Below, in pieces: positions 1 through 60,372 of a DNA stretch of 64,000 nt. Within the stretch, counting starts at the first letter, position 1. Each line of letters begins with the position of its first letter. The stretch is from NCBI GenBank assembly GCA_000004985.1, contig GG738912.1; one strand, written 5' to 3'. This DNA is from Naegleria gruberi. Lineage: Eukaryota. The notes below the pieces were generated by a model, which was given only the letters and a program-made list of their open reading frames with translations, ran no database searches and was not told where the DNA came from. The position numbers and the translations under genes are program-made.

Positions 1-3000
1 ATGGCATCAAATAATTCAGGTGTTTGTAATGGAAGAGGTCATTGTATTGATTACAATCATTGTTCCTGCAATTATGGATACTCAGGAATTGGCTGTGAAC
101 TGTATTCTTGTTACGGAATTTCTGCAAATAGCTCACGAGTTTGTTCGGGAAGAGGAACTTGTAGTTTATCGGATAGTTGTATTTGTCAAAATCACTACAC
201 TTTCCAACAAGACTGTTCAGTTACAACTTGTAATGGAGAGTTCAGTAACTCTTCGAATGTTTGTAGCTCACATGGACAATGTATTTCTTACAATCATTGC
301 AATTGTTCTGAAAATTATTATGGAAATAATTGTGAAATGTTCAAATGCTTTAATATTCCAGCCAATGACTCATCAGTTTGTTTTGGAAAAGGAAATTGTT
401 CGGATTACAATACTTGTAATTGTGAATTGAATTATTATGGACTTGATTGTTCAGAAAAAATTTGTAATGGTACATTGAGTAGTAATTCATCTGTTTGTAG
501 TTCAAGAGGTTCCTGTGTTGCATTTGATTTGTGTAATTGCACTGAAAATTACTTTGGTGATTGGTGCGAATTGACTACCTGTTTTAATACATCATCTGAA
601 GATGCAAGTGTTTGTTCTGGTAAGGGAGTTTGTGTTAATTTTGATACATGTACATGTCAATCAGATGCTTATGGATCTAATTGTTCAGAATATGGTTGTT
701 TCGGAGTGATGAATTCAGAGCCAAATGTTTGTAGCTCAAGAGGAGCTTGTTTGAATACTGACAGATGTAATTGTTCAGATAATTACTTTGGAAATTACTG
801 TCAATTAACAACATGCTTTGGAATTACATCCAACGAAAGCATTGTGTGTAGTGGAATGGGAGATTGTATTGATTTTGATATGTGTCAATGCCAAACTGGT
901 TTTTATGGAGACGTATGTGAATCTCACTCTTGTTTTGGAATACTTTATAATAATGAAACAGTTTGCTCTAGTAACGGAAATTGTACTCAACTGAACCATT
1001 GTGAATGTAACTCTAATTTTACTGGAATTCAATGTGAAACTCTCATTGTAATTCCTGATCCTGTTGTAAACATTACAATGAATGAAACAATCGTAACAAA
1101 CACCATGAACGAAACTTCAACTTTAAACATCACCCTTCCATTGAATGAAACAATAGAAAGTAACGTGACCATTATCTTGAACGAAACCTTGAATGCAACC
1201 TTGAACGAAACTGTGGTTGATAATTCTACCTTTTTAAACGAAACCCTTGAATCAAACAATACCTCTTTGATTGAAAATACTACAAGATTGAACGAAACAG
1301 TGAATGCTACATTAACTACCAATGAAACAATTAATGCTAATGTGACTATTTCGAATCAAACATTGATTGCCAACGAAACAATTCTAGATAATGTGACTAT
1401 TACTAATAACATAACAACAGTGATTAGCGAGAACGTAACATTGATTGACAATACTACAGGATTGAACGAAACAGTGAATGCTACATTAACTACCAATGAA
1501 ACAATTATTGATAATGTGACTATTTCAAATGAAACATTGATTGTCAATAAGACAATTATAGATAATGTGACTATTACTGACAATATAACAATCATAACAA
1601 ATGAAACTAATATTGAAAATAGTCAAACAGTTGTAAACGAAACAAGTGTCAGCACTCCTAATATTACTCTGACTAATGATACAATAGTGAATAACGAAAC
1701 TACAATTGCAAACGAGACATATCTTAACGAAACTATGATTGATGTAATTCCAATAATTGAAAACGACACTATTCTTTGTGAAAAGAAGTTGAATTGTTCC
1801 AATCATGGTGATTGCCTTTATACTGGAAAATGTAGATGTTACACTGATGATTCGAATGGTTATTGGTCAGGAGAAAGTTGTGATACTTGCTTATTTGGAT
1901 TTTATGGAGATTCGTGTAGATTCAGACCTCCAGTTGCAATTATTGCGGCTACTGAAGAAGTTTATAGCTCTTGTGATGACATTTTGATTGATGGAAGGTC
2001 AAGTTATTCATTTGATGGAACTGATTTGAATTTCTATTGGAAATTGATTGATTCAGATACTTTACAAGAAGTTTCTTCAAATCATTCAAATGTTGCATTA
2101 TTAAGATTGAAAGGAAATATTCCACATGGTAATTATTTCATATCTCTCCAAGTAGAAAGTACCACTTTGAATCAAAATAGCTCCCTAGTTTATTCCAACA
2201 TCTTTAAAAAGTCAAAAGTTCCAATTCCTGTTGTAAATTTGATCGATAACACCATTGAAAAGTTTACAAATCAATTCCCTCTAACAGCCAAGAAGACACT
2301 TACAGAATCTGCATGTGCTTATGAAAAATCCATCATAGAATGGTCTCAAATAAGTGGCCCACCAATCAATTATCAAGTTGACCAATATTTCAATCTTTAC
2401 ATTCCATCTATGCTCAATTACGGCAAGAACTCATTCACATTCCAAGTAACTGCCTATTATCCATCTTCTCCTAAATTTAACGCTACTCAAACACTTATTA
2501 TCAAGACCAAATCCACAGATTTAAGTCTTGATCTTATACAAACCACAGCCACAGAAACATCTACAAATTTGGTTGTAAAATTTGTTGATCTAGAATTGAA
2601 TGGAGATGAGGAAACTTGGAAATGGAGTTGTTTGGATAATAACAATACGAAATTGATGCTTTTCCTTAGTGATATTTCTCAAAGAAAAGTTGATGATATA
2701 ACTTTTGATTCTTCTATTTTCGGAAGTGAAATACCAAACTCTATTGAATTAACTCTACAAGTCTCCAAATCCTATAACAGAAGTATTGAAAAATCAACAA
2801 TTATCTACTTTAATGCAATTCCTCCAATTGTCTCGATTGTTTATACTGAACCAAGTACAAGCTTTGTTCTTCCAGGTCAACAACTTTTCTTACAAACATT
2901 TATTGCCAACAATCAACAATCAAATTTGACAGTTTTCCTTAATGGACAAGTTATCGGTGTGTACGATAAGACAGGTCTGATAATAGACACTTCCAATTTG

Positions 3001-14287: not shown

Positions 14288-16071
14288 ATGTTTACCATCA
14301 TTGCAGCAGCATCTGAGAGTGTTACTGTTGATCAGCCACTTGAGGAATCATCCTCTCTTCTCTCTCAATTATTGCTTGCCCTTTTGGCCATCATTGCAAC
14401 CTTAATCATCATAGCCACACTCAAGGTTCTCCAAATGCGACAAAAGATAAAGCACATTCCAGGTACTTGGCAATATTTCTACTCTCTCTTTCGTATTCCC
14501 TTCATTGCTCCCTATCTGTATTTCGGTCCAACTGACAAGATGCTCGAATTGATGGACAAGATTGGTGACAGTGAAACCAAAACAACTTCCCTCTCCATGA
14601 TAAATGAGAATAGTGTCTGGATTTCTGATAAAGACATGATAAAGGAATTAACCATCACCAAAGCAAGTGATTTTGAAAAACCAAAAGATTTCTTTGATGC
14701 CATTAACATTTTTGGTGAAAATTTGGCATCTGTTCAGAGTGAGAATTGGAAGAGACATTTCAAAGTTTGTAATCCTGGATTTAGTCCAAAGAATTTGGAA
14801 TATGTTTGTAAAGTTGCAGCTCAAAGTTCAGATTTACTTTTCAATGAATGGAAGAAGGTGATTGAAAAGGATGGAAAAGTTGTGTTACAAGTTACGGATT
14901 ATTCAGATTTGACTTTGGATGTGCTTGGAAAGGCAGGATTTGGTAAGTTTTACAATGAATTTTACAAGAATTTTACAAAAATTGTGAAATTTTAGGATTT
15001 GATTTTGGTATTTTCACTTCAGACGAAACTGGTAAGAAATTTAGAGCTGCTTTGGAATATACCATCACTTATGGTATTGCAGTGAGAGGTTTCATATTGC
15101 CAGCATCCAAATTCTTATATAACATTGTTGCCAATTATACTGGATTGACAGATTATTGTGATTTCATGGCCAAGATTTTGAATAATGTAATCGAAACTAG
15201 AAGAAAGGAAATTAAAGAAAGAGAACAAGATCCAAATGCTAATGATAAACGTGGAGATGTTCCTTGTGATATTTTGAGTTTGTTGGTGGAAGCAAACATG
15301 ACTGAGAATGCATTATCAGATGGAGAATTGATGAGTAATTCTTTTATTTTGGCGCTGGCCGGCCATGAGACGACGTCAACTTGTAAGTTTTGCAATTTTT
15401 AACCTTACTGCAATATTGTAAAATTATTGAACTGACATAGTATTACAATGGGTTTCATATGAAATTTCAAAGAGACCTGAAATTTTGAAAAAGTTACAAC
15501 AAGAAGTTGATGAGAAGTTGCAAGGAAGAGATCCAACCTATGACGATTTCCCAAAACTTGACTATGTTAATGGAGTAATTATGGAAATTCTTCGTGTCCA
15601 TCCACCTGTGTCCACAGTTATTAAGGTTGTATCCAAGAAATCTACCAAGATTGGCAAGTTTGACATTCCAAAGGGAACTATTGTTCGTGCCTTTATGGAA
15701 CATACTCATTACAGAGAAGATTATTGGAAAGATCCATACACTTTCAATCCTGACAGATTTGGCGACTTTGAAAGTAGAGAAAAGATTCAACACACCTTCA
15801 TGTGGCTTCCATTCTCAAGTGGTAATCGTAAATGTGTAAGTAGCATCAAATTTCATCATTTTTCAATAGTTTCCAATACTATTTTTTATTGAAATAGATT
15901 GGATATCGTTTCAGTTTAATGGAAGGTTGTATAATCTTGGCCAAATTGGTTCAACATTATGACTTTTCATTATTAAATGATGAAAAGGTTGATCCTGTCA
16001 CTACCAGAACTTTATCTGTCAATAGACCTTCTCCAAATATGAAAGTTGCCATCACTCCTCGTGTTAAATAA
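14288..16071 (+). CDS. Cytochrome P450 monooxygenase, 4 exons
   Basis: Exons are 14288-14942, 14996-15382, ~15441-15835 and 15898-16071. Introns are 53, ~58 and 62 nt, all GTAAGT..AG. The spliced protein joins '...LGKAGFG|FDFGIF...', '...AGHETTST|LLQWVSYEISKRPEILKK...' and '...FSSGNRKC|IGYRFSLMEG...'. The last junction completes the haem-binding motif FxxGxRxCxG. The K-helix 'EILRVHPP' and the 'PDRF' (PERF) motif are present. The N-terminal TM anchor is 'LLALLAIIATLIIIATL'. An alternative intron-1 acceptor at 15022 is also in frame. Confidence 0.85.
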
Positions 16072-16081
16072 AGTTCATAAT

Positions 16082-19000
16082 TTATTGATTTGTTGGATAA
16101 TCCCAATAATTATTATACTTCTTTTTGTTTGGAGATTCCACTTGTTGAGCAAAGAATCTTGCATCTGGAGAAAATTCTTTGTTATCATAATAAACATAAT
16201 TGGTCACTGGAGGTGAACTAAAACCTCTTGGTCTCATGAATTGAATTGGAGTTGAGGATTCGAGTGGAACAGTCTTTCTCTTTCTCTTATTCACACAGTA
16301 CATGATACAGCAGAATCCAATTGTGGCAGCAATGGCCAAACAGAGAATTATATAAATGGCAACTCCCAAAATTAAATAATTGGAAAGGGAAAAGATATTT
16401 TTGGAAACTGTTTCAACAATGAAAACGTTGGTGAATCGAGAGCATTTACAAGTGGCAATATCTTGATTAATGCTCAATATTTTACAATTTGAGGAAAGAT
16501 CACCAGTTTGATCTGTAAAATCAACGCAGGAATATGAATTGTTTGAGGTTACAATTTCCAAATCAAGGAAGGTTCCAGCATAAGAAGACTGGTCTTGTTA
16601 ATTGGGAAGGTATAAATGACTCCACTTTCATCAATTGGGAAATCATTATCAAGTACATTAAACGAAACAATATTCGAAATGACATAGCTCTCTTTAAACT
16701 TAGAAGCATATTGGTCCATAGAAGCCAACTTGGTATTCAATCCATAAACATCCTGCATTGTAATCATAATATACGAGAATGGCTTCTTTACCAATGCAAC
16801 CTTACTGGCCTTGGCCAAGAAATTTCCATCCAATTCTACAATCGTTCCATAAGTAGGATCAACAATTTTAGGTTCATAATCATAGACGGTATGTCGATTA
16901 GTATTGACAGAGTAGAAATCACCCTTTCTGTTTTTAGCTGTTCCACCCAAGGTTAATGATCTACTTGTCAAGAAATTTGATGTTTTGGAAGCTGAAATTA
17001 ATTTGAGAGAGGAAGTTGATTGATTAGTTGAAGCTTTCTTCTTTGAGAGATAGGAATAAATTGATTTGATACAATTTTCAAATAATTGAACAATGGCATT
17101 GTCGACTTTCAATTCACTTGACAGGGCAACTCTAAGAACTGAATTTAAATTATTCAAAACTTGTGAAATTACTTCAGATGTCAAGGAATCAATATTAAGA
17201 AGAATCGAATCAAGTCCAAATCCAACCAATGATATGTAATCATCTGTAACTCCACTAATATTTGCCAACTGGACCATCATATTCAAAACAGAAACAGTTG
17301 TCTTTTGAACTAGGTCAAATTCTACAATGGAAATATCACAATTGTGTCCGATATATCCTTCAGCACATTCGCAATGGTTCGCAACTTCAACACCATTCTT
17401 GCAAGCTAACGATCTCTTAGCTGTTGCACTCTGTGAGTTGATATATTCCTTAACTAGAATGGCATCAGTTCTGGAGGTATAAGCAGATTGTGAAATACTC
17501 TGACTAATGTCACCAGTCTCTGAGAGTTTGACACTTGTATCTGTCCATACTTGAACTACACCTTCAATATCCTGAATAGTTGAATAAACAGGTGTAGTAA
17601 TTGAAATGTCATAATAGGAGATGACAGATGCAGATGTCTTTGTGTCCACAATTTCAATGTAACATTTCACAATAGTTCCAGAAGAAGGTGATGGAATCTT
17701 TGAAGAATAAATTTCTCCAAGGTTGTACAATGGTATCTTGGTTCCAGATCTATCATCCACAAATCCATAATTAAAGTCAATTGTCTTTTCAGAATTTTGG
17801 CAATTTACGCACGAGAATATAAAGTTAGTATCGAGAGCAATGCCTTCAGTTGGAGTAATTTCACACAAGCAAGGTTTTGGAGTGGTTGCAACTTGGAAAG
17901 TATAACTAGCACTTGATGTAGCTCCAGTAGAAGAATCAAAGCTTGAAATTTCAATATTATTCGTAGATCCTTCTGGCAATAATGAAGTATCAATAATCAC
18001 AGTACTTGTTGAACTAGTTTCTGATACTGTGTTAACTAATTGTCCATTAATATACCAAGTATTATTCAGTGTGGATGATTGAGATGAAACTAGAGTCTGC
18101 ATTGAGAAGGTATTACCAGATAAAATGTAACTAGTTGACGGTTCGATGGAAAGAACATTCAAAACAGGTGGAATATTAACAAAGTATGCTCTGATTGATT
18201 TGGAAATTGATCTTCCGTCTGATTTTACAATAGTGAGTGTGAAATCTACATAGTTTGGAATCTTTCCATTGAAATAAGAGGTGGAAATGATGACTAGAGT
18301 GGATTTTGAATTGGAAACAGTAAGTAGATAATCCTTTAAAAAGGTATTTGTAGAGTTCCAATTCCAAGTTTCAGTTGACTGAGTGTTCACTGTAGATTCA
18401 GGATCAGAATACATTACTTCAATAGTGGAAGACTCACTTGATGATTGGAGAATGTGCAGTTCAAGTAAAAGATCTGGAGATTTCGTATTCAATGTCACAA
18501 GGGAAGAAACACGAGCACTTGGATTGGAATTATAAAAAGCAGAAACTTTGAAAATATAAGTATTCATTCCGAATGTTTTCAGAGTTGAAATTAGCAGATT
18601 ATTGGCAGAATCTACTGAATATTCAATTGAAGGACCGCTTGTTTGTACCCATTCAACACTAATTGCTTCGCTTGATTGACAAGATGCTTCGGTTACTATC
18701 TTTTTGATAGTGAGCGGGAATTCATTAGAGTATTTTTCGTATAATGATTTGGAAACAACCAATGAAGGAAGTGGCTTTGAGGATTTGGTAAATACATTAC
18801 TATATGTAACACTACTACTAATTCCCAAATAGGAACTCTTTACAAATAATGTAATAAAGTAAGAACCAGGTGGTAAATTTGGACTAAGAGAAATAATTGC
18901 TTGATTTGGAACTATTTCACTAACTGATAGCGTACCGTTAGAATTATACAGAGCCCAAGTGTAAATTAAGGTCTTACCATCGGCTGAGAAACTTGAAGAA

Positions 19001-22000
19001 CCATCCACAGCAATCTCATCACATGAACTGTAAATGTCTACATTTCTCATTTTGATTATTGCTTGTGGTGGAGCAATAGATACCGGAGGAAGAATTACAA
19101 ATGAAAGATAATTGGTAGGTTGAGTGAAAATTTGATTGAAAGCTAGCGTGTTAAGTCTGATTGAGGTCATGCTCAAGATAATATTGTAATCCATTGATCC
19201 AAATGTAATTCTGAATAAAGAAGTTGACTTGTCAATAAATTGACACTTGACTAAGGAAGAGCTTCCGTAAATTCCATTGGTTAGGTCATTGGCATGGAGC
19301 AATTTACTGCATACGACATCAACTCCACTAATTGGTGGTGAATATAAATAAAATTCAACACCTCTAAAATCAGATGTCATTCTGACAGGACCTACAATTC
19401 GAGTTAAACAAGATTCTCCATAGTAACCACTTTGACATGTACTACATGAAGAACCTGTCCAATATCCTTCATTAGAATTTGAATAACATGTGCAAAAACC
19501 TTTTACATTACATTCTCCATGATTAGAACAAGTTTCAACTTTAGTACATTCTGTTATAGTTATTGAGTTGTTTGAAGGAGCATTTGGTGGAATGGAAGTT
19601 GTATTAGTTTTTACAGTTGAATTGGTAGTTGTTGTATTATTTGTTACAGTTGAATTAGTAATTGCTGTAGTATTTGAACTAGTTGTGGCATTCATAACAA
19701 CAGTCTCATTGTCTGCTACGGTAGTATTTTCTGTAACGTTTGTTGAATTTTCAGTTGGAACGGTCGTGGTTTCATTCATTGCATTACTAGAAGCATTGAA
19801 ACTATCAGTTGAATTAGTAGAAGTGACATCAGAACTGGTAATATTTTCTGAAATGGTCGTGTTGTTATCAATCAAAGTGGTGTTGTTAGAAATAGTTTCG
19901 TTCACTTGATCAGTGTTATTAGAGGAAACAGTTTCATTGGAGCTAGTAACTGTCTCATTAGAAATTGTTTGGTTAGTTTCACTCGCAGTACTATTTTCCA
20001 CAACAGTTTCATTTGAAATTTCAACACTTGTAGAATTATTGTCAAGTACTGTACTGTTAGTAATGTCTGTGGAATTTTCCACATTGGTTTGGTTAGCAAT
20101 TGTGGAGTTGTCAACAAGAGTAATATTTCCATCATTGAGAGTTGAATTATTTAAAATTTCTAATGTAGAATTATTCTCAATTGAAGTGGAATTATCAGTA
20201 ATGTTTGTTTCATTCGACTCACCAATAGATTCATTCAAAGCTGTAGAATTATTGGAAACTATGATGGTACTATTATCATCCGTTGTTGTATTGCTAATCA
20301 AACTGTTATTAGCATCAACTGTGGAATTATCCACAAATGTAGAATTATCAACCAAGGTTTCGTTTGCTTGAGTGATTGTTTCATTGGAGGAGCTAAAAGA
20401 GTCATTTGAAGCAGTTGTGCTATTGGTAACCACAACAGTGCTATTATCAGTTGTGGTACTATTAGACAAAGTACCATTATTAACATCACGATTATCCACA
20501 AATGTAGAATTATCAATAGAAATAGTTGTGTTATCAGTCAAGCTAATGTTAGAAGTTGTGGAATTGTCAACTTGAATACTTTCATTACTGATAACTTGAG
20601 TACGATTTTCACAGAATTGACCAAAATATCCTTCTGTGCAATTACAAATATCAGTAGAGACACAAGATCCATTTCCATTACAAACACTTGGATCAGTATT
20701 GAGTATTCCATTACATTTAAATTCAGAACAATCTGCTCCATAGAATCCATTTTCGCAACTGCAAGTATTATAATCCGTACAATTGCCTTTTCCTGAACAA
20801 ACGGAACTGTTGGACAAAATATTGTAACAAGTTGAAATTTCACAATTAGATCCATAATAATTGGAAGCACAATTACATGAATTAAATGAGATACATTGTC
20901 CATGGCCTGAACAAGTATCTGAAGAATTGTATAATACACCATTACAGGTTGTAACTGAGCAATCAGATCCGAGATAATTGGTGTGGCAATTACATTGGTC
21001 ATGAGATGTACACTCTCCATTTCCAGAGCAGGTCAAAGTATCATTAGATAACACATTGTTACAACTGGTGATTTCACAATTAGATCCAAAATAATTAGAT
21101 ATGCAATTACATGAATTAAATGAGCTACATTGTCCATGACCTGAACAAGAAACGGAGGAGTTGGATAATACACCATTACAGGTAGTAATTGAGCAATCAG
21201 ATCCAAGATAATTGGTGTGGCAATCACATTGGTCATGAGAAGTACACACTCCATTTCCAGTACAAGTCAATGTGTTGTTGGACAACATATTGTAACAAGT
21301 TGTAATTTCACAATTAGATCCATAATAATTAAGGGAACATTGGCAAGTGTCATAACCAATACATTGTCCATGAGAGTTACATACCAATGCATTATTTGAT
21401 TGGATATTGTTACAAGTTGTGAGTTCACAATTGGTTCCAAAATAATTGCTAATACAATTACAACTATTGTAAGAAGAACAAGTTCCCTTTCCATTATTAC
21501 AAACTTGTGCAGAATTTGAAAGAATATTGTTGCAACTGGTGATTTCACAATTAGATCCCAGATAATTAGCTTGGCATTGGCATTGATTAAGACTAACACA
21601 AGATCCCTTTCCTGAACAAACATTTGAAGAATTACTTGATATTCCATTACAAGTTGTAATAGAGCAACTAGATCCAGAATAACCAGAATTACAAGAACAT
21701 GAATCCGAGCTAGTGCAATTTCCGTGTCCAGAACAAACATATGAGGTATTTGTGGAAGCAATTGAAAAGCAAGAGTATGAAACAGGCGTCACAACTGAAC
21801 TACCATCACTATTGCCACTATTTCCACTATTTCCACTATTAGAAACTACAATGGAAGCTGCAGTTGGATCATAGCTTTGGCAATCGGTTCCATAATAACC
21901 AGAACTGCAAGTACAAATTCCTGCACTGCAAGAACCATGACCTGAACAAACCAATGATGATGATGTTGGAATGGCATTACATCCATCCATATCACAATTC

Positions 22001-25000
22001 ATGCCAACCTTGCCTTGTGGACAGGTTGGGAATAACAATCTCAACCTTCCAGTTTTAGATTCAGTATAGTAAATACCAAGATTTGAATACCAAACATTCA
22101 CTGGTTTGGATACATAATCACCGGAACCATCGAAACCATACAGAGGAGGACTAGTTGATGAGAATAAGGTAAATGTACCAGCATAGGTGGACAAGATATT
22201 GGAACTGACTTTTCTGATAGTTTGAGTTCCTTGATCAGCAATATAAATTTCATTTCTTGATTCATCGACTGAAACTCCGGTTGGATAGTAAAGTTTAGCT
22301 GTGCTACCATCAGCTTGTACGTTGGCTCCACATGAAGCACCAGTAGAACAATAACTTGTGGAACCAGCAACAATTGACATGGTTCCCGAGGAAAGCTTTC
22401 TAATCTTGTGATTCTATAAAGAAATGTTAATGAATAAATATTATTTGAATAACTTACTCCTGTATCGGCTACATAAATGGTATTACCATCTGAGCTCACA
22501 TATAAACCAGTTGGCTTTGACAATTTAGTCAAGAGAGGATTAGAATTATCACATGTTGCAGAGCCAGCAGTTGTACATTCAGTTCCTTCACCAATCACTG
22601 TAGTTAAAACATTATTATATATCATTCTAACTCTGTGATTCATTGTGTCGCAAAAGTAAATCTTGGCTCCAACAATGGCAATACTGGTTGGGAAATTAAG
22701 GGTTGCCGAGAGAGGAGCTCCATTATCACCACATGCAACACCAGAAGCTGGAGTACATGCTGTTGAAGTTCCTGCAACTGTGATTACCTTATTATTGGAA
22801 TCTATTTTTCTAATTCTGTGATATTCTGATTCAGAATAGTATATTTCACCTGTGGTTGATGATTTGGCGAGTCCAAAAGGAAATTGAATACCACTAATTT
22901 GATAAGTATCTTGAATTTTTAAGGAAGCTTGGTAGGCATAAGTGTTATCTGCGGTTTGACTTGAAGCAGTTGGTAATAAAAAGTTTCCTAAAATAGTATT
23001 GATTCTTCCTGTAGTAGCATCAAATTTAGCAATTCTGGCATAGTTCATGCTTGGTGTTGAGGCAAACAATTCACTATCGGCAGTACTTCCACCACTTGCA
23101 CCAATATAAATATCTCCATTAGAATCAATGAATAAACCAGCAGGTCTCATCAATTTAGTTCTCAAAGCAATTGTATTCTCTCCATTGTAAAATGAGTAGT
23201 CATTGTAATAGTGTCCAGAAGCTGAGGCTATATTTCCATTAGAATCGAGATATCTGATTGCAGAGAAAGTGAATCCACTGTAAGTACCTGAGTAGGAACT
23301 AGAGACAGCATCATCGAAATAGAGAGTTCCACTTGGTGAGAAGGAAATTCTCTTGGCAGATATCGGTGAGAGTGCACTTGACCATTCTCCCTTATTGGCA
23401 TAGGTAGCTCCATTACCAACCACTGTAGAAATGTAGCCAGTCGAAGAAACCTTTCTAACTCTTTCAGAATCACAGAAATAGAGCTCGTTTGTTGATGGAT
23501 GAATGTCCATATCATTCACTGTTAAAATTGTGGCACTTGTTGCAAGACCACCATCACCACATGGCTGTGTTGAGCAGGAAGTTCTCAATGTACCAACATA
23601 TTTGGTAATTGTGTTTCTATTGGCTGAAATCTTTCTAATATAATACAAACTAGGGTCAGCAACGAAGATTTCATTATTAGCATTGACAGCAACTACCTGA
23701 GGACCTCCAAAGGTTGCTGCCAATGGACTCCCTCCTTCACCACAGGTTCCACTATTACAACCAGTTGCCTGTATACCAGCAATGGTTGTAATAATTCCTG
23801 TTGCCTTACTGACCTGTCTAACAATACGATCTCCAAAAACAGCAATGATCAAATCATTATTAGGTGTGAGGGCTATACCTTTAGGTGTATTTAAGGAAGT
23901 TGCTGTGGCTGCAACGTTATTAGCATAGGAAGCACCACCTCCAGCATAGATGGACATGACACCTGTGGCATAATCAATCTTTTTGATATAATTGTCGTCC
24001 ACAAAGTAAATGTCATTGTTGGATTGATCAATGGCCATGTAAGTTTTTGATTTGTAAACTTGAGAATACTTGGCCAGATTACCAGCGCCAAAACCGACAA
24101 GAGCAGCGCTAGGATCAGAATAACCACCTGCTATTTTCTTTACAATAGTAGTATCTGGAGCAACTTGAAAGATTTCACTATCTGCCATGACGTACATGGT
24201 TCCATTCTTTGTAAAGGCAACTTTTGGATTGATTTTGAATTGAGTATTAATCATCTTATTGCCAAAACCATTAGAAGATTCATGAGTACCGGCTATACAT
24301 GTAACAACACCATCTTTTAACATTCTCAAACGATTACTCCTATGGAAATTAGAATAGAGAAATTATTAAGAAATAAAATAAGGAATAAAAAAACATACAT
24401 TTCAGTATAGTAAATAGTTGTACCATATGAAAAGACAGATTTGACTGCTTTTGCTTCATCGTTCGAAACATAAATCTTAATATTCGTTCCAATTTGGCCA
24501 TCGCCATTAGGTCCAATAGAAAAGTAATAAGCTGATGGCCAAACATTATTACCATTACCAATGACGGTTGAAATTATTCCAGTTACAAAGTCTACTTTTC
24601 TAATTCTATAAACTGTAGAATCTGAAAATATTAAATCTCCATTAGAAAGAACAGTCAAGCCCTGAGGATAACTGAGCAAGGCACTTAATGCGCTACCTCC
24701 ATCACCACATGCAGCCATTGGGGTAGTTGCGCATGAGCTAAGAGGTGTACCAGCGTAACGTTGAATCATGTTGGTTTGAGTATTCCACCTTCTAATCACA
24801 GAGTTGGTCTTGTCTGAAATGTAGACATACAGACCATCAGAAGAAACAGCAATACCACCTGGAGTTTGAAACCTAACTGAAGCATCTGAGATGAAACCTC
24901 CATCACCTTGATAACCTTGGTTGCTAGCATCACCATATTTTGCTATTAAAAGGCCAGTAGCTCTGTCAATCTTTCTAATCTGGTTGTTGGAGGATTTACC

Positions 25001-25675
25001 GTCTTCCATGATGAAAATGTGATTTGGTGAGACAGCAATAGTGTGAGGATTGGTGAGTGTTTGTGAATTTAACCCATTACCATAGAATAAGGTTATAATT
25101 CCACTCGTTTGGTTCACCTTCTTAATATTGGAATTGTAATAATCCAAAATATAAACTGAGCCATCAACTGGATCAACGGCACATGTATGTGGTCTTAAAC
25201 CAGCCTCAGTTGCCTTAATATTATTTCCACAAGGACCGTTTGAGGCAGATGAAGTACAAGATATTGATTGATAACCATTGCCCGCAAAGTGAGTGGCAAC
25301 ATTAGAGCCTGCCGAAATTTTGAAAACCTTATATTGTCCATCATCACAAATGAACAAATCACCAGTTTTAATGTCAGCACAGCCACCACCTCTCACATCC
25401 TTAAAGAATAAATTGGATGCATCAGAGTCTATTTCAGTTAAATGTCGATAGATGCCTGCCATGGTCCTAGAGCTTGTTGCTGCATGTACGGAATGATGAA
25501 TTATACTAATATGAAGAATGAATAATTGGAGAAGGACTAGGAGAAAGTATGTGAAATCCGAAATTCTCTTCTTCTTCTTCCCACTATTAGCAAGAGTTGT
25601 TAACCTAGCAGCATGCTGCTTTGAATATTGTACACTGATACCGAGAAGAGACATGTTATTGTTACTTTTTATCAC
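16082..25675 (-). CDS. Giant type-I receptor-like protein, paralog B (~3200 aa): signal peptide, NHL beta-propeller repeats, tenascin-type EGF array, N-glycan stalk, PKD/REJ-like module, GPS-like motif, TM, tail. Contains a 1-nt frame break near the 3' end
   Basis: Four track ORFs (24326-25675, 22098-24329, 16549-22380, 16082-16561) form one gene. Intron 24340-24398 (59 nt, GTATGT..ATAG) joins '...GTTIYYTE' to 'MSNRLRMLKDGVV...'. Intron 22414-22457 (44 nt, GTAAGT..TATAG) joins '...TIYVADTG' to 'NHKIRKLSSGTMSIVAG...', rebuilding a canonical NHL repeat (YVADTGNHRIRK). The N-terminus 'FTYFLLVLLQLFILHISII' is signal-like. The C-terminal part aligns with paralog A (TSLLML/TPLGFL..SYSCVDF/SYSCGDF, CKCSRFTNVF/CRCKRFTNVF). 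The frame shifts by +1 between ~16565 and 16590; the track's 'M' at 16561 is a TTG. Confidence 0.75.
19560..20590 (-). repeat. Low-complexity N/S/T-rich region encoding ~80 N-glycosylation sequons (stalk of paralog B)
   Basis: The translation is 'NESIQVDNSTTSNISLTDNTTISIDNSTFVDN...NSTVKTNTTSIPPN'. The region spawns long spurious antisense ORFs in the track (19568-19909, 19913-20371 and others). Confidence 0.8.
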
Positions 25676-29800: not shown

Positions 29801-32273
29801 GAAGCCTTTTGTACCAAATATTTGGATAGTAGTATTTCAATAATTAATGAAAGTGTACAACAGTTCATGATTTACACAGTCTCTATTTTAGGCATATTCA
29901 TGGCGGTGAGCTTTGTTTTCTTAACAATTTTATTGATAGAGCTAGCAAGTATGAAAAAGATCATCAAATTATTTGAGAGGAATATCAAAAAAGACATTGT
30001 TGGAAAGATTTTCCATACCATTTCAGCCAAAATTAAAAGCGAGACCGTGAGCAATTCCAACTCTCTTTCTATGGATAAAATCAAGCCAAACCTGGTCATA
30101 ATTATTAGTACTCTAATTGTACTATTAGCTGCATGTGGATGTATTGCTCTAATATTTTCAGAGACCTATCTTAACAGCCGAGATTCTGTAAACATCATGA
30201 CTCGAGTTCGCCTTTCTATCCAAACAGCTGTCAGTGTGGAGAGAGTAGCATTCTTTGCTCAGGAATATTATACTTACTTTGGTGCTGAACAATTCACTTC
30301 ACCAACAGCATCACTAAGGTATCTTATTAAAAGGCCTACAAGTTTTGGAGATATGAGATTGTGGCAAGTGAGAAGTAGATTTGATGCATTGGTTAGCAGA
30401 GTCAATGACGGTGTTGCAACTGCTTCAGATTACATGAGCAAACTAATCTATGGCTCTACTGATTTGAATCTTGAACCGATAATGGGTATATATCCAAGTG
30501 TCGATAAGATTATTTCCATTGGTACTGATAACTGTACTGAATACATGAAGCAAAACGGTATTGCATACACATATGCTAGTTTTAAATTGTATTGTCAAGG
30601 ATTGGAAACTGTTTTTTCAGATTTTGCTACAACTGCTCCACAGTTGGTAACTGATTCGAGGAGACATTATGCTATGCAGCAAACATCTGCAATGAATGGC
30701 ACACTCTTAGATCCTTTTGCCTTGGCCATGAGAACCAACAATTTACTACGTTTATCCCTTCCATTAATTACAAAGTACACAACTTTTATTAAGGAGTTTG
30801 TAAAAGCTTCATCCAGTCCAGTAGTTGTACTCACTATTTCTTCTGCTTGTTTGGGAATTTCAATAATATTAATTTGCTGGTTCATTTATGGGACTATGAT
30901 TTCCAACTTTTGGACTCATGTTCATTCTTTCAGACTCATGTTAAATTACGTACCAATCGATGTTCTAGATCATAATGAAAAGTTAAGGGCTTTTGCATTA
31001 TATAACAAAATGGATGGAAAGACTGAAACTAGAGCCAAGAGAAATACCAACTCGGAAGAGGATGAATATTACAATTTGAAGGTGGTTTTCAATTCTAGCG
31101 TTGAGGGAACCATGATTTGTTCGGAAAATGGAGAAATTGAACTTTTCAATTCTTCTGGTTTAAGAATGTTTGGAAGTAAGAGCATTGACATTCTAGGAAC
31201 TTCAATGTTTGACTTGTTTGATATTCCTTGTAGGGATGTTGCAAAAAGAACTGTTGCCCATTTAGTGAATCAATGTAAGGAGCAACGTTCTGATGAAGAG
31301 AACGCAAACGTAGAAATATTAGATATAGAATTTTTGAGAAAGAATCAAACCAAGTTTCCTGCCAAAGTTACCATCTATGCTGTTCAATTTGCTGGAAAGA
31401 CAACAAACATTCTCGTTACATTCAAAGATGTTACATCAGAGAAGAAATCAAACATGCTATTGTCTGATGAAAAGAAGAAGAGCGACAACTTGTTGAAGAA
31501 CATTTTACCAAATCAAGTTGCCAATCGTTTAAAGTCAGGCGAGACATTTATCGCTGAAAAGTTTGATGATATAACTTGTTTCTTTAGTGATATGTAAGTA
31601 TTCAAGTTGGCAATAATTATTTAATTACACTTGTAGGGTTGGATTTACAAGAATAAGTAGTAAGATGCAACCAACAGATCTTGTTAAAATGTTAAATAGT
31701 ATTGTGAATGGATTTGATGTATTGACAGAGAAGTATGAATTGGAAAAGATCAAAACTATTGGAGATGCTTACTTTCTAGTTGGTGGTCTTCACAATTCTC
31801 AATCTGATCATCCAGAACGTGTTTTAAAGTTTGCCATCGATGCATTTGGAGTCATTCATCAATATAACAAGAATAAGGTTGTGGAAACGGAAGATATCAA
31901 TATAAGAGTGGGTATTAATACTGGGGCTGTAGTTGCTGGTGTAATTGGCTCAAAGAAATTTGCCTACGACTTGTGGGGTGATGCAATCAATGTGGCATCA
32001 AGAATGGAATCTACTGGAGTACCCGGAACTATTCAAATATCACGATCAACCTATGAAAGAGTCTTTGATTTGGGTTATGAATTTGAGGAACGTGAAATTG
32101 AAGTTAAAGGAAAGGGGTCTGTAAAGACCTACTTGATGAAAAAGACGCATTTGCAAGAGCTCAACGTTTCACACCTTCTCACAACTCAACAATCTCTCAG
32201 AAATGTTGTCACCTCACAACAGAGCTTGTTTGGAATATCTGCTGCTTTGAGAAGAGATGATGATTTAAAGTAA
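26897..32273 (+). CDS. Receptor-type adenylate/guanylate cyclase (class III) with multi-TM N-terminal region and PAS domain; 2 exons
   Basis: Exon 1 is 26897-31593 and exon 2 is 31637-32273. The 43-nt intron (31594-31636, GTAAGT..TTGTAG) splits '...CFFSDM|VGFTRISS...', i.e. inside the conserved F(F/S)D(I/M)VGFT cyclase motif. The catalytic core 'IGDAYFLVGG...RVGINTGAVVAGVIGSKKFAYDLWGDAINVASRMESTG' is in exon 2. The PAS-like segment 'GTMICSENGEIELFNSSGLRMFGSKSIDILGTSMFDLF' lies upstream. Exon 1 has at least two blocks of TM helices. Confidence 0.85.
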
Positions 32274-32527: not shown

Positions 32528-35500
32528 TTAAACAGTCGATTTCAATTCATAATTTTGCGGAGCAGCATGTTCTTTACCCTTCTTTCTTCTGAGGACACAG
32601 ACAATCAATCCAACAACAGCTACGATAATAAGAAGAACTGGAATAATTAACAAGATTAAGGCGATATAGTCCAAATTTGGAGTAGCTGGTGCAATTGGAG
32701 TTGGGTTTTGAGTAGTGGTACTTGTTTCTGGTTGAACATCAGGAGTAGTAGATGAAGATATTCCAATAACATAGGAACCAGTTGAGTTAATAGAAACTAC
32801 ATAAGAATCTGGGTTTGTACCAAGAATTGAGCAGGATGATGATTCGGTAATGGCTCCATTGACAACCATGTTACACTTTGGTTCTTGAAGAGCTCTGACA
32901 CTTGAATTTGACTTTTCAATGGTCAATTGAGCAATTGATTTGCTGTATTGAATCAAGACATTGCTGTTATCAGTACTTGAAACCACAAAGTCAAAGATCT
33001 TTGAAGTGGACTTGAATGTAGTATTGCTATTTTCATAAACCTTCATTGAGATTTTAACACTGTCCAAGGAAGAAACTTGTGGAATTTCACTAAAAACTGA
33101 TGAGAGATTGAATGAAGTGATACCATTTTCAGCAACGCTTTCGAATAAACCATTCAATGAAGCAATATTTACCAATCTTACATATGAAAGTGATTTAATA
33201 CCAGATCCTCTAACAGCAGGCATATCAGGAACAACATTCTTCAACTTGATATTCATCAAGTTATTCTTAACTTGGTCAATCTTGTTCAAATCTTCAATTG
33301 TAAAGCTAGAAGCCATTAAACTTCTCTTTCCTCCCAAGCTAGTACTGACATAGCTTTGAATGGTTGATGCAGAATCAGTGGATGATTTAATTTCTTCATC
33401 AGACAATGAAATTGAACTTGATGATGAAGCTCCATTTGTTGCAGATTGGAATTTTTCAATAATCATTCTAATAGTTTCATCTGGTAAGTTGTCAACACAG
33501 GAACTAATTGATGAAATGACTGACAAGGTTGAAGATGTTGAAGTAGAGGTTTGACTACTCAACTTTTCTTCAGTTGCCTTTTGTTCAAAGAATGAAAGAA
33601 CAATTTGCTTACCAACTTCAGCCAATAGTTTCTTTTGTTCTGGATCATCTGTTTTAACAGATTGAATAACACTCAAGGCAGAGGAAACTGAAGATGTTGT
33701 CATTGTTCCACTTGAAGAACTTGTTAAAGCTGTAATGGCAGTTGAGGCATCCTTTGGCATACTTACTGAAACAGTTGTGGTTGTTTCAGATGAAGCACCC
33801 TTAGAATCAAAGACAACAACCTTAATTTCCAACTCACCAGCAGGGAGTGAGGTACCAAATGATCTAGTTTCAGATTTTTCTTTCAATAGTCTCCAATTAG
33901 TGTCTGTACTTGTCTTGGAGTAGAATGCAAATGATAGTGGAAGTTGTGGATCAGACCAACCATTACCACATGAAATCTTAAATTCATCAGATAGGGCAAT
34001 ACCACTCTTTGGAGATACTTCAAGAGTACCCACAGTTGGAGGAGAGTTAACAGTGAATGACAATGAAGCTTCACCACTCTTTTGACCATCAACAACCTTA
34101 ATAGTTAGGGTATAGGAAGCACCTGGTGCCAATAATGATTTTGGAATGACAATGTATTGCTTTGAAATGTCAACTGAAGAATCAAAAGTAAAATCACTTG
34201 AAGACCAAGTAAATAATCTGGCACTCGTTAAAGTATCCAAAGAAGTTGTTTGTAAAATTAAATCACTTGATGGATCGACGGCAACAAGATCAGCATCTTT
34301 TGGAGCAGAAATTGAAACTCTCAAAACAGTTGACTTGGATTGATCAGAAACAGTTACCTTAACAGAAGCAGTTGATGTACGAGTTGACTTGGTATAAGTG
34401 GCAGTGAAAGAATAAACACCTGGGGTCATTGTCTTAACCAATTTGAGTGTTGATTGATCAATATTTTGTGCACCATCAACAAAACCTTCACAAGTTGAAG
34501 CAGTATCAATGTTTGAACATGAAATTGAGACTTCTCCACCAGCTTCAGTTGGATTACTTGGATCTTGTTTAGAAATTGTGAAACTAACTGGATCTTCAAA
34601 TGATTGAGTCATATCACGAATATTGAAAGCAACTTTCAATGGTAAAGCAGTTGCTGTAACCTTAAAAGTAACTGATGCTTCTGGTGAATTATCTTCCTTG
34701 GCAGTTAATTTAAAGACATATTCTCCTTCTTGAGTCAATTGAGTATATTCATTACTAAATACTAAAAGTTCATTCTTTTGTTTGAGAATTAAAGGACTTC
34801 CACTTTCCAATGAGTAGGTATAAACCAAGTTACCACTTCCCTTATAACATGATGGGAAAGTTACAATTGGTGAAATAATATATGGACTTCCAATAACCAT
34901 TGAACTTTCCAAACCATTCTTAATTGAAATAGTTGGAGGAGTAGCAGCAATAACACTAAATGTAACAGAGGCAACTGATTCCTTGAGAGAAAATGAACTC
35001 TTAACAGTCACTTGAACGACATAGGTTCCAACATCCAAATCAGATGCTGAAAATTTAACACCAGGAGTTGACAGTTTTGAAATGATTGAATCTAAAACTT
35101 CAGTACTTGAAGGAGCCAAAGTTGTTGTCCATGAATAAATCAAAGATCTACGATCCAAACTTGAAGAACCAGATGCATCCAAATAAATAGAACCACATGC
35201 CTTTGAAATAGTGGACTTGTCAGCAATCAAAACAGCAACTGGATCAACAGCCTTATAGCTCATTTGTGCTACAGTAACATAGGTGGTCAATTCACTATCA
35301 AAATATTTCTTGACATTCAAAGTTCCACCAATGGTAATTGATGAAGAGATACCCAAGGTAATAGTCAATAAACTCTTTTCACCATTCAATGAGCAAACAG
35401 GATTAGTTCCCAAAACTTGTGAATTTGTAATCAATGAAGAACAGTCAATTCTCTTTCTCAAACTACTCATAACAGTAGCAGTGATGGAATCACCATTTTC

Positions 35501-38500
35501 AGAGAAACCAAATGAACTAGTATCAATACTAAAATCACACTTTTCACCAAACCAACCAGATTTACAAGTTTGACAATTGGCACCTTCTGCATTACCTGAA
35601 CATATGCATGATCCATCATTTGAACAAGTTCCCTTTCTATTACAAGTAGTTTCGGCAGAACATTGATATTGACATTGATCACCAACATAGCCATCAATAC
35701 AACGTTCACAGAATGGACCAGTAAACTTATCAGAANNNNNNNNNNNNNNNNNNNNNNNNNNNNNNNNNNNNNNNNNNNNNNNNNNTCTAATATCCTTATC
35801 AATGTAATTTCAAACACTCTTACACAATCTAGTTTCAGGAGTTGATGGAGAGTTACAAGATTGAATGACAGAATAGCAAGCAAGTCTTGCATTTGACTCT
35901 TCACATGTAGAATTACAAACTGTACCTTGTCCTTGAATCTTTACAATATTTGAATCATAGAGAGATTTAGCAGACTTGTCAAGTTGACTCATGGCATTAG
36001 TAATCAATTGTCTAGCATCAGTTGCATTGGCAGCTCCAGATGAGTAATGAGTATTCAATACCTTAAAGTTTTGAAGATGTGTTTTACAGAATGAAAGTCC
36101 AGAAGGTGGAATAGGAACACATGAGGCAGCTGGTGTATAAATAGTACAATCATCTCCAGTAAATTCAGGTGGACATACTTTAACACAGTTTCCTTGAGCA
36201 TTCTTTACATATCCGGAAATACATGAACCACATGGATTTGTAGCGAGTTCAGTAACATACTTTTCTTGACATTTACAATAACCTTGATAACCAGTGGTGT
36301 CCTTGTAGACACATTGTCCATATTGACCACATCCATCAGCACAATCAGCTGGTAAACGAATACAATTACCATTTTCATTATTGAAACCAAATGGACATAC
36401 ACAAACACCTTTTTGTAAAATAAATCCAGTCTTACACGAGCTACACAAGTCTCCAACAAATAAATCGCTTGTACATTGACACTTGGCAATACCAGTTGAG
36501 TTGAGACAAACACCTCCATTCAAACAAGTAAGTTTACAAGCAACTTCTGGTTGACCAGGAGCAGTTTCACACAATGAACCAGAATAACCATTAATGCATG
36601 AACAAAATTCCTTATTGGAAGCATCAAATTTACACAATCCTCCATTCAAACATTGCTTTGAACAAATTTTCTTTTCACACAAATCACCTTCATAACCAGA
36701 ATTACAATTACATTTAGCAATACCAGTAGAGTTGGCACATTGACCACTGACACATTTCAAGGTGCAAGGATTTGGAATCTTCTTTTCACACAAATCACCT
36801 TCAAATCCTGAATTACAAGTACATTTAGATACACCATTGACATTGTCACATCGTCCGTAAACACATAGTAAATTACATGATTGTTTTTCACACAAATCGC
36901 CTTCAAAACCATTGTTACACATACATCTGGCTGTTCCTGTTGTGTTTGAACAAAGACCATTGACACATTTCAAGGTACATGGATTTGGAATCTTCTTTTC
37001 ACATAAATCACCTTCAAATCCTGTATTACAATTACATTTGGCAATACCAGTTGTATTTGAACATTGTCCACTTACACATTTCAATGTACATGGATTGGCT
37101 GATAGTTTTTCACACAAATCACCTTCGAATCCATAATTACAAACACACTTCATCACACCATTGACATTGGTGCATTGACCATTGACACACCTCAAAGTAC
37201 ATGGTGCAGTTGTTTGTTTTTCACATAGATCACCTTCATAACCAGTGTTACAAACACATTTAGCAATTCCAGTTGTGTTAGCACATTGACCATTGACACA
37301 TTTCAGTGTGCAAGGATTGGCTGATTGTTTTTCACATAAATCGCCTTCAAACCCTGGACTACAAATACACTTCATCACACCATTAACATTTGAACATTGT
37401 CCATTGACGCATTGTAAAACACATGGTGTGGTGGATTGTTTTTCACACAAATCACCTTCATAACCAGTATTACAATTACATTTGGCAATTCCAGTTGTGT
37501 TAGTACATTGGCCATTGACACATTTCAAGGTACAAGGATTTGGAATCTTCTTTTCACATAAATCACCTTCAAATCCTGAATTACAATTACATTTCTGAAC
37601 TCCATTAACATTTGAACATTGACCATTAACACATTGTAAAGAACAAGGGGCATTGGATTGCTTTTCACACAAATCACCCTCATAACCAGCATTACAAATA
37701 CACTTTGGTGTTGCACCAGAACCAACACATTGACCATAAACACATGCCTTGCCACATGGTGATCTTTCTGGTACAGAACAAGTCTTTCCAGAATAACCAG
37801 TATTACAATTACAATAAGCTGGATTTTGATAAGAATCAGCAGTTCTCATCATGACAGCTTCATCTCCAATTAAGACACTAGTGCCAGAGGTACAAGTACT
37901 GTTAGTTTGAATTTGACAGAATTGACCTGTTTTACCAGAAGTACAAACACAACTACTTGTTCCATAGCTGCATTAAAGTAACTGAAACCAACATTGGTAC
38001 AATAATTATCATAATTGACGCAAGTTTTAGCATTGTAACGAGCAGTAACAGCAATACAGACTGGATTAGATGCTGGACAATCAAGACTAGTGGAACATTG
38101 TTCTTGGCATAATCCACTTCTACATTCAGAGTTATAATAACCCATTCCCAAACAATCAGCTTTAGTTTCACATAATCTGGCAACACATTTCTTTTGGTTA
38201 TTACAATATGGGGTCTTTGTGGAAGCTATTCCTTGACAATCAGCATCAGTTGCACATTGTTCAACACATTTAGTGTTTGAGCATTTTGGTTTGTTTGGAT
38301 CTTTACAATCATTATTACTTGAGCATTCAGAATGACAAATCATTTGACTTGAATTTGTGGAAATTAAAGAAACAGAAAAACTTCTAGAGGATGCAACAAT
38401 ACAAGATGGATAATTTGGATTTGTACAATCAGAGTTTGAGGAACACTTTTGATATGAACATCCCTTATATCCAAGAAGTAAATCTTGGCAAACTTCATAT

Positions 38501-41500
38501 GCATTTCCACATTGAGAATTGTCAGTACATCCAGCTGAACACTTATTATTGATACAAATCTTTCCTGAAGAACAATGGGCTGAGGTGGTACATTCTGGTG
38601 CACACTTTTTAGCGACAACATCACATCTTGAATTCACTGGATCGTTACAAGTAATGGTTGGGGATACAAGATTGCATTCATAGAAACAAACAGTTTGATC
38701 TGAAGAATAAAAAGTTGAAGCACTCGAGCTCACTTTGCTATAAGGAATACAAGCACTATATGTTCCAAGATTTGCACATTCTGAGCTTGAAGAACACTTC
38801 TTATAGGCACAATCATATTGGTTAGAAGAGTCCTTATAACAAACTTTGTTAGTAGAGGCACACACATCCCTATCAGTAATTTGATCACAACTTGAGCAAG
38901 TTCCTGCATTACAGAACTTCTTATTACCATAACTAAAACAATCTGTATCACTTGCACATTGAGATGCGCAAGTTCCATATTTAGTATTACATACTGGATA
39001 TTTTGGATCTTTACAATTTGTATTGGATGTACATTCTGGAGAACAAACAGTTGCTGAAGTATTCAATGTCAATCCATTAATAATATATCCAAAAGTTGAT
39101 GCTGGTTTACAATATTTGAAGAGTAAACCCTTACAATCAGTATCAGCATTACAAAGTTTGTAATTACAAGATTTGCTTCCATCCAAATGAAGTGCACAAC
39201 CCTTAGTACCATCACAAAAACCATCACTTGTACATGGGGCACACTTGGTATTCACACAAAAGTTCTTTCCACATTGACTATTGGATGTACATTCTGGAGC
39301 ACAAACGTTTTTGGTACATTTGGATTTGAATGGATCTTTACATTGACTGTCAGATGTACATTCAATATCACATGTTCCCTTATTACAAATTGGATAGGAA
39401 GCTCCACAATCAGAGTTAGAGAAACAAGGTTTCAATTCACAATCACCAGTTGCATTACAATATGGTCTAAAAGCATCAGTACAAGAACTATTAGAGGTAC
39501 AGAATGGAACACATTCTTTCCAAGAAGTACATTTGTGTTTGTTATAGGTTGAACTACAATCAGCACTTGTTGAACATTCATTCAATTTGACACGACACTT
39601 GTTAGTGGAAGTATCACAAGCACTTGTACTATTACAATGACTATCAAGTGTACATTCTGGTGAACAAACACCTGATCTACATCTTGGTTTGGCAGCAGTT
39701 GAACAATCGCTATCGATATCACATTCAGGTTTACAATAGCCAGATCTACAATATGAGTTAGGACTAGTAGATCCACAATCCATTGCAGAGGTACATGCCT
39801 TATATGAACAATCACCAGTGGTGGTATTACAAGTTGGGAAAGCATAATTCGTGTTGCAGTCAAAATTGGTAGCACAATTGGCAACACACTTATTTCCTGA
39901 ACATTTGTGTCTATTCGCAGTACCACTAAAAACTCCAAGTTAAAAATGAAATATTTCACAAACTTACCTGCAATCAGAATTTTCATTACATTCAAAGGTA
40001 CAAATCTTTTCACTTTGAGAGAGTATACTTTCATCATAAATATTGAATTTGCTTGCTGGGAAACATCCTCTACCTGAAGGACATTCACTAGTGGATGAAC
40101 ATTTCTGATATGTACACAACGTATATCCAGATGGAGTAATACCACAATAGTCCTTATTTGGTAATCCACCTGTACAGTCTGCTGTTGTTTTACAGTTGGC
40201 ACATGTTCCTCCAATGCATTTAGAATAACGGAAATTAATATTAGTTATGCAATCAGAATCTTGTGAACATGGACTAGATGCAACACATTTAGCTCCAAGA
40301 TTGGTATTATTCTTTACACATAATTGCTTTTCAACTGATTTACAGTCATCACCCATGCATTCCTGTTACAATTTTGTTACAATCAAAAATGTTGAAAAGA
40401 TTCTTAAAACTTACACCATAGCAATGAGTTCCAATGCATGAACTGAACCAAGGATTAGTACAAGTAACATTGGCATCACAATAATTGGTACATCTTCCAT
40501 CAACACAAGCTGTTTTATCGTCATCTCTTCCAGAACATTGACTGTGTGTTTCACATTCTTTTTACAAATTTAGAATAAAAAATCAAAAAGAAAACATACC
40601 TGATTTACACAAACCATCCGAACAACGTGTAAAAGCTCCCCAAGTACAATCAGCTGCAGAAGAACATGTTTTAAGTGCACAATCATTAGAGGTGGCGTTA
40701 CAAATTGGATGACTTCCAATAGGACAATCAGAATCTGATTGACAATTTTGAACACATTTTCTACCTGCACATTTGTGCTTGTTTAAAGTTCCACTATATA
40801 TATGATTTTCAGGAAAATATTCCTATAACACTGAACTTACCTGCAATCAGCATCAGTTTCACAATTATAATCCAAGCAAACTCTTGTTTCTGGATCTTCA
40901 AAATCATTAATACTAAAGTCTGTTGCCTTCCAACATTTCTTCTCTCCTGGACAATCACTAGATGATGAGCATCTTTGATAGGTACAAGCAGTGATACCAT
41001 CATCAGTCAATCCACAATAATACTTGTCATTATTTGGACAATCTGAATTTTGTAAACAGTAAGCACATGTACTATTCATACACTTTGAATAAATCCAGTG
41101 ATAATCATTTGATGAACCGCATTGGGAATCTGATGAACATGCAGAACCTAAAAAAGTAATAAATTATTAGTATTTTAATATAAAAAAACATACCTGGAAC
41201 ACATAAATTACCACCATTAGTACTATTATGATAACATTTTGGCTTTTGAAGTGATTTACAATCATTTCCAGTTGAGCAAGACTATTTTCAGTAATTAATA
41301 TAAATGTAATAGTTATTCAAAACTTACAGGGAAACAATAATTACTCAAACATTTACCGAACCAAGGATCAGTACATGGTTGATCATCACTACAATAGTTA
41401 GTACACTTGTTATCCATACAGACATGTTTACCATCTGTCTTATCTTTACAATCAGCATTGGATGTACATTCTATTACAATGATTAAGTATTACTGAAAAT

Positions 41501-60219: not shown

Positions 60220-60372
60220 TTTTTTTAATTAAAAAATTAAACTTTCAAGTTCATTCAATCTAAATAATTCACTAACATGTACAATATTCATATTAAATTC
60301 ATAAAAGTATTTCAAATTACAAAATTTACAATTTTTGATTTTTGTAAAAGTTTGAAAAAGTTCAAAAAAAAA

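Follow-up and report, generated by a model that had tools for sequence, protein, structure and literature searches.

Two short introns very probably unite three open reading frames of Naegleria gruberi into one NHL-EGF-REJ gene

The stretch of Naegleria gruberi DNA analysed here (64,000 nucleotides [nt] of contig GG738912.1, GenBank assembly GCA_000004985.1; hereafter the window) carries on its minus strand three open reading frames (ORFs) that abut or overlap, 24326..25675 (449 amino acids [aa]), 22098..24329 (743 aa), and 16549..22380 (1943 aa). We are highly confident that these ORFs are exons 1, 2, and 3 of one gene interrupted by two short, AT-rich U2-type GT-AG spliceosomal introns. With this model, a 9.6-kilobase (kb) stretch of a reference scaffold for which the public sets searched gave no matching protein is best taken as one three-exon gene of the NHL-EGF-REJ family. 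It is a corrected gene model; the splicing itself is ordinary, and nothing new is claimed about splicing or about these protein families.

Both boundaries were read directly on the minus strand (a slash marks each exon border). The first is TAT ACT GAA AT/GTATGTTTTTTTATTCC...TTCTAATTTCCATAG/G AGT AAT CGT TTG AGA ATG, in which the GTATGT donor is followed by the 3′ stretch TTTCCATAG, and its removal gives the protein junction YYTE-M-SNRLRM (junction 1). The second is GCC GAT ACA GGA/GTAAGTTATTC...CATTAACATTTCTTTATAG/AAT CAC AAG ATT AGA AAG; the whole 44-nt intron is GTAAGTTATTCAAATAATATTTATTCATTAACATTTCTTTATAG, and the protein junction is ADTG/NHKIRKLSSG (junction 2). When 25675..24399, 24339..22458, and 22413..16549 were joined, the length was divisible by 3 and the single stop lay at the end. 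The spliced frame comprises 3000 codons from ATG 25654 to TAA 16549, or 3008 codons if counted from 25675. The parts of the gene are as follows (GC, guanine plus cytosine content).

25652..25654, minus strand: probable start codon, where the ORF has its first ATG; a basic stretch and a signal-like hydrophobic segment come next.
24399..25654, minus strand: exon 1 (1256 nt), encoding the signal segment, NHL blades 1-5, and the front half of blade 6.
Residues 96-134, 143-194, 197-255, 259-303, and 316-370: blade-profile matches of exon 1.
24340..24398, minus strand: intron 1 (59 nt, phase 2, 19% GC), GTATGT...TTCTAATTTCCATAG, ending in CATAG.
22458..24339, minus strand: exon 2 (1882 nt), encoding the second half of blade 6, nine whole blades, and a half blade.
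22414..22457, minus strand: intron 2 (44 nt, phase 0, 16% GC), GTAAGT...CATTAACATTTCTTTATAG, ending in TATAG.
16549..22413, minus strand: exon 3 (5865 nt including the TAA at 16549-16551), encoding the remainder of the split blade, two blades, the EGF repeats, the stalk, and the REJ region.

An original prediction, made from the letters and an ORF list, had proposed that the ORF fragments are one gene joined by 44- and 59-nt introns. This is borne out, since the coordinates are exact, the frame is restored, and the profile and colinearity results given below agree. The same prediction took the intron at 24340-24398 (GTATGT...CATAG) to keep the frame into the next NHL-repeat ORF, as the single stop at the end of the joined frame confirms, and regarded the C-terminal tails of the ORFs (MYVFLFLILFLNNFSILISIGVIV; VSYSNNIYSLTFLYRITRLESFP...) as intron read-through. 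These tails are indeed the translations of the two intron segments and of the out-of-frame exon sequence after them.

An NHL-blade profile was constructed from 90 blades of 19 other proteins obtained by homology searches, most of them annotated Naegleria proteins and none from the gene studied here. The spliced blade at junction 2 scored 57.3 bits over profile positions 4-60, the highest value of all blades, compared with 20.3 and -1.8 bits for its unspliced halves. The rebuilding of an NHL repeat at ADTG/NHKIRKLSSG, which had been predicted, is therefore supported by the profile as well as by the gapless alignment to P0011 described below. At junction 1, the spliced blade scored 9.8 bits compared with 0.0 and 3.3 bits unspliced. 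We also enumerated all GT-AG pairs of 25-200 nt that keep the frame open and scored them against the blade profile. The proposed pair ranked first at both junctions, among 18 frame-preserving pairs at junction 1 (17.0 bits) and among 97 at junction 2 (69.1 bits). Alternative acceptors for intron 2, giving introns of 53 and 62 nt, reached 51.4 and 34.2 bits against these 69.1 bits; the two versions remove NHK or NHKIRK, residues that are aligned to NHKVRK in P0011.

Related proteins run through the junctions. In the N. gruberi paralogue P0011, GIYVTKSGE-VYFADTSNHKVRKISSDG aligned with GLYVSSDGNTIYVADTG/NHKIRKLSSG without a gap at junction 2, and its ADTSNHKVRKI paired with ADTG/NHKIRKL across the junction. 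Over junction 1, the canonical blade EIYIADTNNNRIRRVDQDGFIWTMAGT of P0313 aligned to TIYYTEM/SN-RLRML-KDGVVTCIAGT. N. gruberi P0301 gave one 1603-column alignment (E 3e-163) that covered residues 98-1648 and took in the NHL-EGF boundary as well as both junctions. The N. lovaniensis proteins P0279 and P0270 matched residues ~95-1650 and 2002-2745 and crossed both junctions, and P0241 (3292 aa) matched 469-1647 and 2002-2950 and crossed junction 2.

The AlphaFold2 model of the exon-2 translation alone (mean pLDDT 74.6) had nine four-strand blades flanked on each side by two strands. The half blades at both ends indicate that exon 2 begins and stops mid-blade. The top Foldseek matches of this model were the NHL propellers of teneurin, a teneurin-like protein, SOQ1, and NHLRC2 (E ~1e-18). 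Each intron would lie within a blade, and exon 1, 2, or 3 alone would be unable to form whole propellers. It is very improbable that there is no splicing and that the ORFs are three separate genes, with the hydrophobic tail of ORF 1 (MYVFLFLILFLNNFSILISIGVIV) acting as a membrane anchor or glycosylphosphatidylinositol signal. The read-through tail is hydrophobic, but an AT-rich intron translates to an F/L/I/N-rich peptide by composition alone. ATG codons are found near the starts of ORF 2 (MLKDG...) and ORF 3 (MSIVAG...), yet both ORFs would begin mid-blade without a signal sequence, in a locus that has two hydrophobic segments in all. The half blades of the exon-2 model, the sharp fall of the blade-profile scores when unspliced, and the presence of NHL, EGF, and REJ in one chain in annotated relatives also argue against separate genes and for one spliced gene.

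The window itself and the N. lovaniensis locus L001 served to define the local intron class. Scanning the window for short GT...AG segments that bridge long ORFs, and inspecting the hits, gave five other introns of 42-58 nt, all GTAAGT...TAG and with 18-26% GC.

14943..14995 (53 nt) and 15383..15440 (58 nt): introns of a cytochrome P450 gene; removal of the second rebuilds the I-helix motif LAGHETTST.
31594..31636 (43 nt): intron of an adenylate/guanylate cyclase gene; removal rebuilds FFSDM/VGFTRIS.
58597..58553, minus strand (45 nt): intron GTAAGT...AATAG that joins two ORFs and rebuilds a Zn2Cys6-like pattern (CVRCRKMHKYCSRTKPSCDRC).
39967..39926 (42 nt): intron GTAAGT...TAG.

Three of these five rebuild well-known conserved motifs (cyclase FSDMVGFT, P450 AGHETT, and the Zn2Cys6 cysteine pattern). 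In the N. lovaniensis homologue (L001, protein P0279), the NHL region is interrupted by four introns; they measure 49-102 nt, and their donors are GTAAGT or GTATGT. Both introns studied here fit the class, having GT within a GTAAGT/GTATGT donor, a TAG acceptor, and typical length and GC. Bacterial-style ORF tracks break Naegleria genes at such very short introns (42-59 nt).

Over the gene's sense strand (9.57 kb), GTAAGT occurs once, exactly at the donor of intron 2, and GTATGT occurs three times, once as the donor of intron 1. The GC of introns 1 and 2 (19% and 16%) compares with 36% in the exons. Both introns have a length of 2 mod 3 and contain stops in two of the three frames. Taken together, the scarcity of the donor hexamers, the low GC, and the 2 mod 3 lengths place the intron signals above chance. 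Possible branch-point motifs of the YTRAY kind upstream of the acceptor AG (TTCTAAT at ~14 nt and CATTAAC at ~17 nt) were read in the sequence. It is scarcely conceivable that the two AT-rich segments resemble introns by chance, having arisen as insertions or assembly artefacts. The draft scaffold does have at least one gap, but each segment opens with a consensus donor hexamer that is seldom seen in the gene and closes with TAG precisely where frame and blade are restored, and their length, composition, and signals match those of the five window introns and the four in the N. lovaniensis homologue.

GTATGT at 24830 was rejected as an extra donor, as it sits within the blade motif LYVYISD, and GTATGT at 21384 falls in the EGF region, where the coding sequence runs on without interruption. 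A tandem acceptor, CATAG/GAG (24337-24340, minus strand), closes intron 1, and its second AG lies at 24338-24337, three bases downstream. Use of this second AG (intron end 24337) keeps the frame and gives one residue fewer, changing EMSN to EIN; a one-residue splice variant from the tandem acceptor is possible.

The HSP70 ORF at 60277..62463 is 100% identical to the N. gruberi predicted protein P0121, and ORF 1..5250 is N. gruberi P0248 letter for letter. These identities place the window on a nuclear scaffold of N. gruberi NEG-M, a eukaryote that has spliceosomal introns. When the N-terminal part of the spliced protein (1143 aa) and exon 3 (1954 aa) were used as queries, no protein above ~41-47% identity was found in a large protein collection. 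Within the limits of that collection, the locus appears to have no public protein model.

Several points weigh against the one-gene model and are set against the evidence above. The junction 1 blade is degenerate, and its profile support is modest (9.8 bits). At the same junction, the alternative acceptor (intron end 24337) scored nearly as high as the proposed one (15.6 vs 17.0 bits), which makes the exact acceptor of intron 1 slightly less certain. The intron positions differ from those of L001, the one homologous gene with readable DNA. That the 59-nt and 44-nt introns are removed in vivo is something that we infer. A public protein model for the locus was not found in the protein collection, though P0248 and HSP70 of the same scaffold are present there at 100%. 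Finally, given a frameshift near the 3′ end, the gene may be a decaying pseudogene.

The order of parts that we propose for the spliced protein would be a signal-like segment, about 18 NHL blades, about a dozen teneurin-type EGF repeats, a stalk that is rich in N/S/T and heavily N-glycosylatable, and a REJ region. If the 1-nt frameshift near the 3′ end were an assembly error, the chain would continue through a GPS-like motif and a single transmembrane helix into a short cytoplasmic tail and total ~3156 aa. The first large part is located as follows.

22042..25369, minus strand: NHL propeller region, ~18 blades (residues ~96-1170), split by both introns.

Residues 34-52 (FTYFLLVLLQLFILHISII) are the only N-terminal hydrophobic segment and resemble a signal peptide or signal anchor; the homologues P0301, P0256, and P0241 likewise have a signal-like segment directly N-terminal of the NHL repeats. 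The whole locus encodes two strongly hydrophobic segments, residues 34-52 and one at the far C-terminus. In a Pfam search, the spliced N-terminal 1143 residues matched TEN_NHL (PF25021; 1.8e-58, 198.7 bits, cutoff 27.1) and NHL (PF01436; 6.8e-36). Exon 1 contributes five blades and a half, exon 2 a half, nine whole blades, and another half, and exon 3 a half and two. The "six-plus-bladed" propeller of the original prediction was therefore too low a count, as the profile gives ~18 blades from residue 96 to ~1170, for which three six-bladed propellers would be the simplest grouping.

Exon 3 matched EGF_TEN (6.8e-43) and EGF_Teneurin (2.9e-42) in Pfam. The N/S/T-rich stretch before the REJ region has 55 N-x-S/T sequons in residues 1641-2000. 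The REJ match (PF02010; E 9.7e-13, 47.9 bits vs cutoff 25) covers profile positions 6-447 of 452 and lies at ~17494-18690 of the window. Pfam GPS gave no match at E <= 1 in the protein, and the CxC motif that resembles GPS was recognised by eye alone. The product most likely belongs to the Naegleria NHL-EGF-REJ family and is a large glycoprotein, either secreted or a type I membrane protein, presumably with a cell-surface adhesion or sensing/receptor role, judging from its domain content alone.

The gene's 3′ end contains two further features.

16552..16600, minus strand: zone in which a 1-nt frameshift (-1 or +2) must lie, where the main frame gives way to the tail frame.
16082..16561, minus strand: C-terminal tail ORF in the shifted frame, open over 159 codons, with the CKCSRFTNVF motif, a transmembrane segment, and a cytoplasmic tail.

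The main frame stops at the TAA at 16549-16551, and the homology to the C-terminus of paralogue A, the protein P0248 encoded at the start of the window, resumes in another frame, with ...NSYSCVDFTDQTGDLSSNCKILSINQDIATCKCSRFTNVFIVE, then a transmembrane helix and a short tail. The uncorrected product has 3000 aa and stops ahead of the sole transmembrane segment, whereas the frame-corrected protein has ~3156 aa with a hydrophobic segment at residues 3053-3088. After a one-base correction, the alignment to paralogue A is continuous across the 16552-16600 zone. The predicted size of ~3200 aa and ~9.6 kb thus holds if the 1-nt frameshift near 16552-16600 is repaired (~3156 aa) and fails for the gene as assembled, where the stop comes at 3000 aa. 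A third intron was considered as the source of the frame change, but all 28 of the frame-open GT/GC-AG pairs lacked a consensus donor and deleted residues conserved with paralogue A. Additionally, the segments of the two genes are near-equal in length without any removal, which speaks against a third intron.

The 3′ frame change reflects either an error of the assembly or a mutation that has recently turned the gene into a pseudogene, and a base near 16552-16600 is flagged as doubtful in the reference sequence. The scaffold comes from a draft assembly and has one gap or more (N run at 35736-35785). It is possible, though we consider it unlikely, that the introns are real and the locus is a pseudogene or truncated allele, with a genuine frameshift and a product ending at residue 3000 without the transmembrane segment and tail, or with degraded mRNA. 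Beyond the frameshift, the tail ORF cut off from the main frame shows clear homology to the C-terminal end of paralogue A, and the shift is not repairable by any intron. Pseudogenisation would also account for the gene model missing from the public protein set, where no identical or nearly identical protein was found in the collection that holds paralogue A and HSP70 of the same scaffold. However, the ~9 kb of reading frame upstream are intact and stop-free, both introns retain consensus signals, the 159-codon tail ORF is still open, and the stop lies just ~156 codons short of the expected end; the gap in the draft assembly makes a single-base error plausible. We lean, with modest confidence, towards an intact, expressed, and unannotated gene of ~3150 aa whose 3′ frameshift is an assembly error and whose product is a surface receptor that unites three NHL propellers, teneurin-type EGF repeats, and a juxtamembrane REJ/GPS-like module.

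Other genes of the window were noted alongside. Paralogue A's public model has its start at exactly position 1 of the window, within EGF repeats (MASNNSGVCNGRGHC...). This model is probably N-terminally truncated, and any NHL exons would be upstream of the window. A 980-aa ORF at 32528..35470 (minus strand) shows 24.6% identity to the REJ-like part of the studied gene and lies directly downstream of the EGF-rich ORFs 35810..37852 and 37870..39783, across the 50-N gap at 35736-35785. The region 32528-39783 (minus strand) is probably a third large member of the family, broken by the gap and by short introns (e.g. 39967..39926). At 41728-46182 (minus strand), a 1484-aa ORF carries teneurin-type EGF repeats ~36% identical to those of the studied gene. 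The window is a cluster of EGF-repeat surface-protein genes. On the plus strand, 26897-32273 holds a gene for a multi-pass membrane adenylate/guanylate cyclase with the 43-nt intron at 31594..31636 (GTAAGT...TGTAG); its spliced product has 1777 aa, and the class III cyclase motif FFSDMVGFT is rebuilt. The cytochrome P450 gene, also on the plus strand, occupies 14288-15900 and has at least two short introns.

The closest known systems are giant surface proteins of Naegleria, namely N. gruberi P0301 (2807 aa) and N. lovaniensis C9374_005657 (P0279, 2537 aa), C9374_012347 (P0270), and C9374_002875 (P0241, 3292 aa). They share the signal, the long NHL array, and the teneurin-type EGF repeats and, in some, a REJ region and a C-terminal membrane segment. 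Their identity to the spliced product is 28-31% over 1200-1650 columns, a level of ~30% that makes the gene a paralogue, not an orthologue, of these. The gene of P0279 also shares the short GTAAGT/GTATGT introns in the NHL region, but not their positions, and P0301 differs in having a kinase at its end. In contrast to these annotated relatives, the studied gene lacks a protein model in the databases that were searched, and the 3′ frameshift is present in it. Paralogue A (1..5253, P0248, 1750 aa) shows 37-42% identity over the EGF repeats and 38% from REJ to the C-terminus, including the GPS-like motif and the transmembrane segment after frameshift correction in the studied gene. Its annotated model differs in beginning within the EGF repeats, without a signal sequence or NHL region.

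Metazoan teneurins (PDB 6fb3 and 8fia) and the teneurin-like 9ifo share the combination of an NHL propeller with teneurin-type EGF repeats and gave the best Pfam and fold matches. Teneurins are type II proteins in which EGF repeats precede a single six-bladed NHL propeller; a YD-repeat shell comes next, and the C-terminus is toxin-like. In contrast, the NHL region of the studied protein (~18 blades) stands before the EGF repeats, and its C-terminal half is REJ-like; the Pfam search of the protein gave no YD/RHS or Tox-GHH match. With the polycystin-1/sea-urchin REJ family, the protein shares a REJ domain followed by a cysteine motif resembling the GPS site (CKCSRFTNVF) and then a membrane segment. 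It differs from polycystin-1 in having a single transmembrane helix instead of 11 and in being without a PLAT domain or channel-like region. The protein thus has modules in common with teneurins and with polycystin-1/REJ proteins and the defining architecture of neither. If it is indeed the product of an intact gene, it would be a new member of a heterolobosean family whose proteins combine modules known elsewhere from metazoan teneurins and from polycystin-1.

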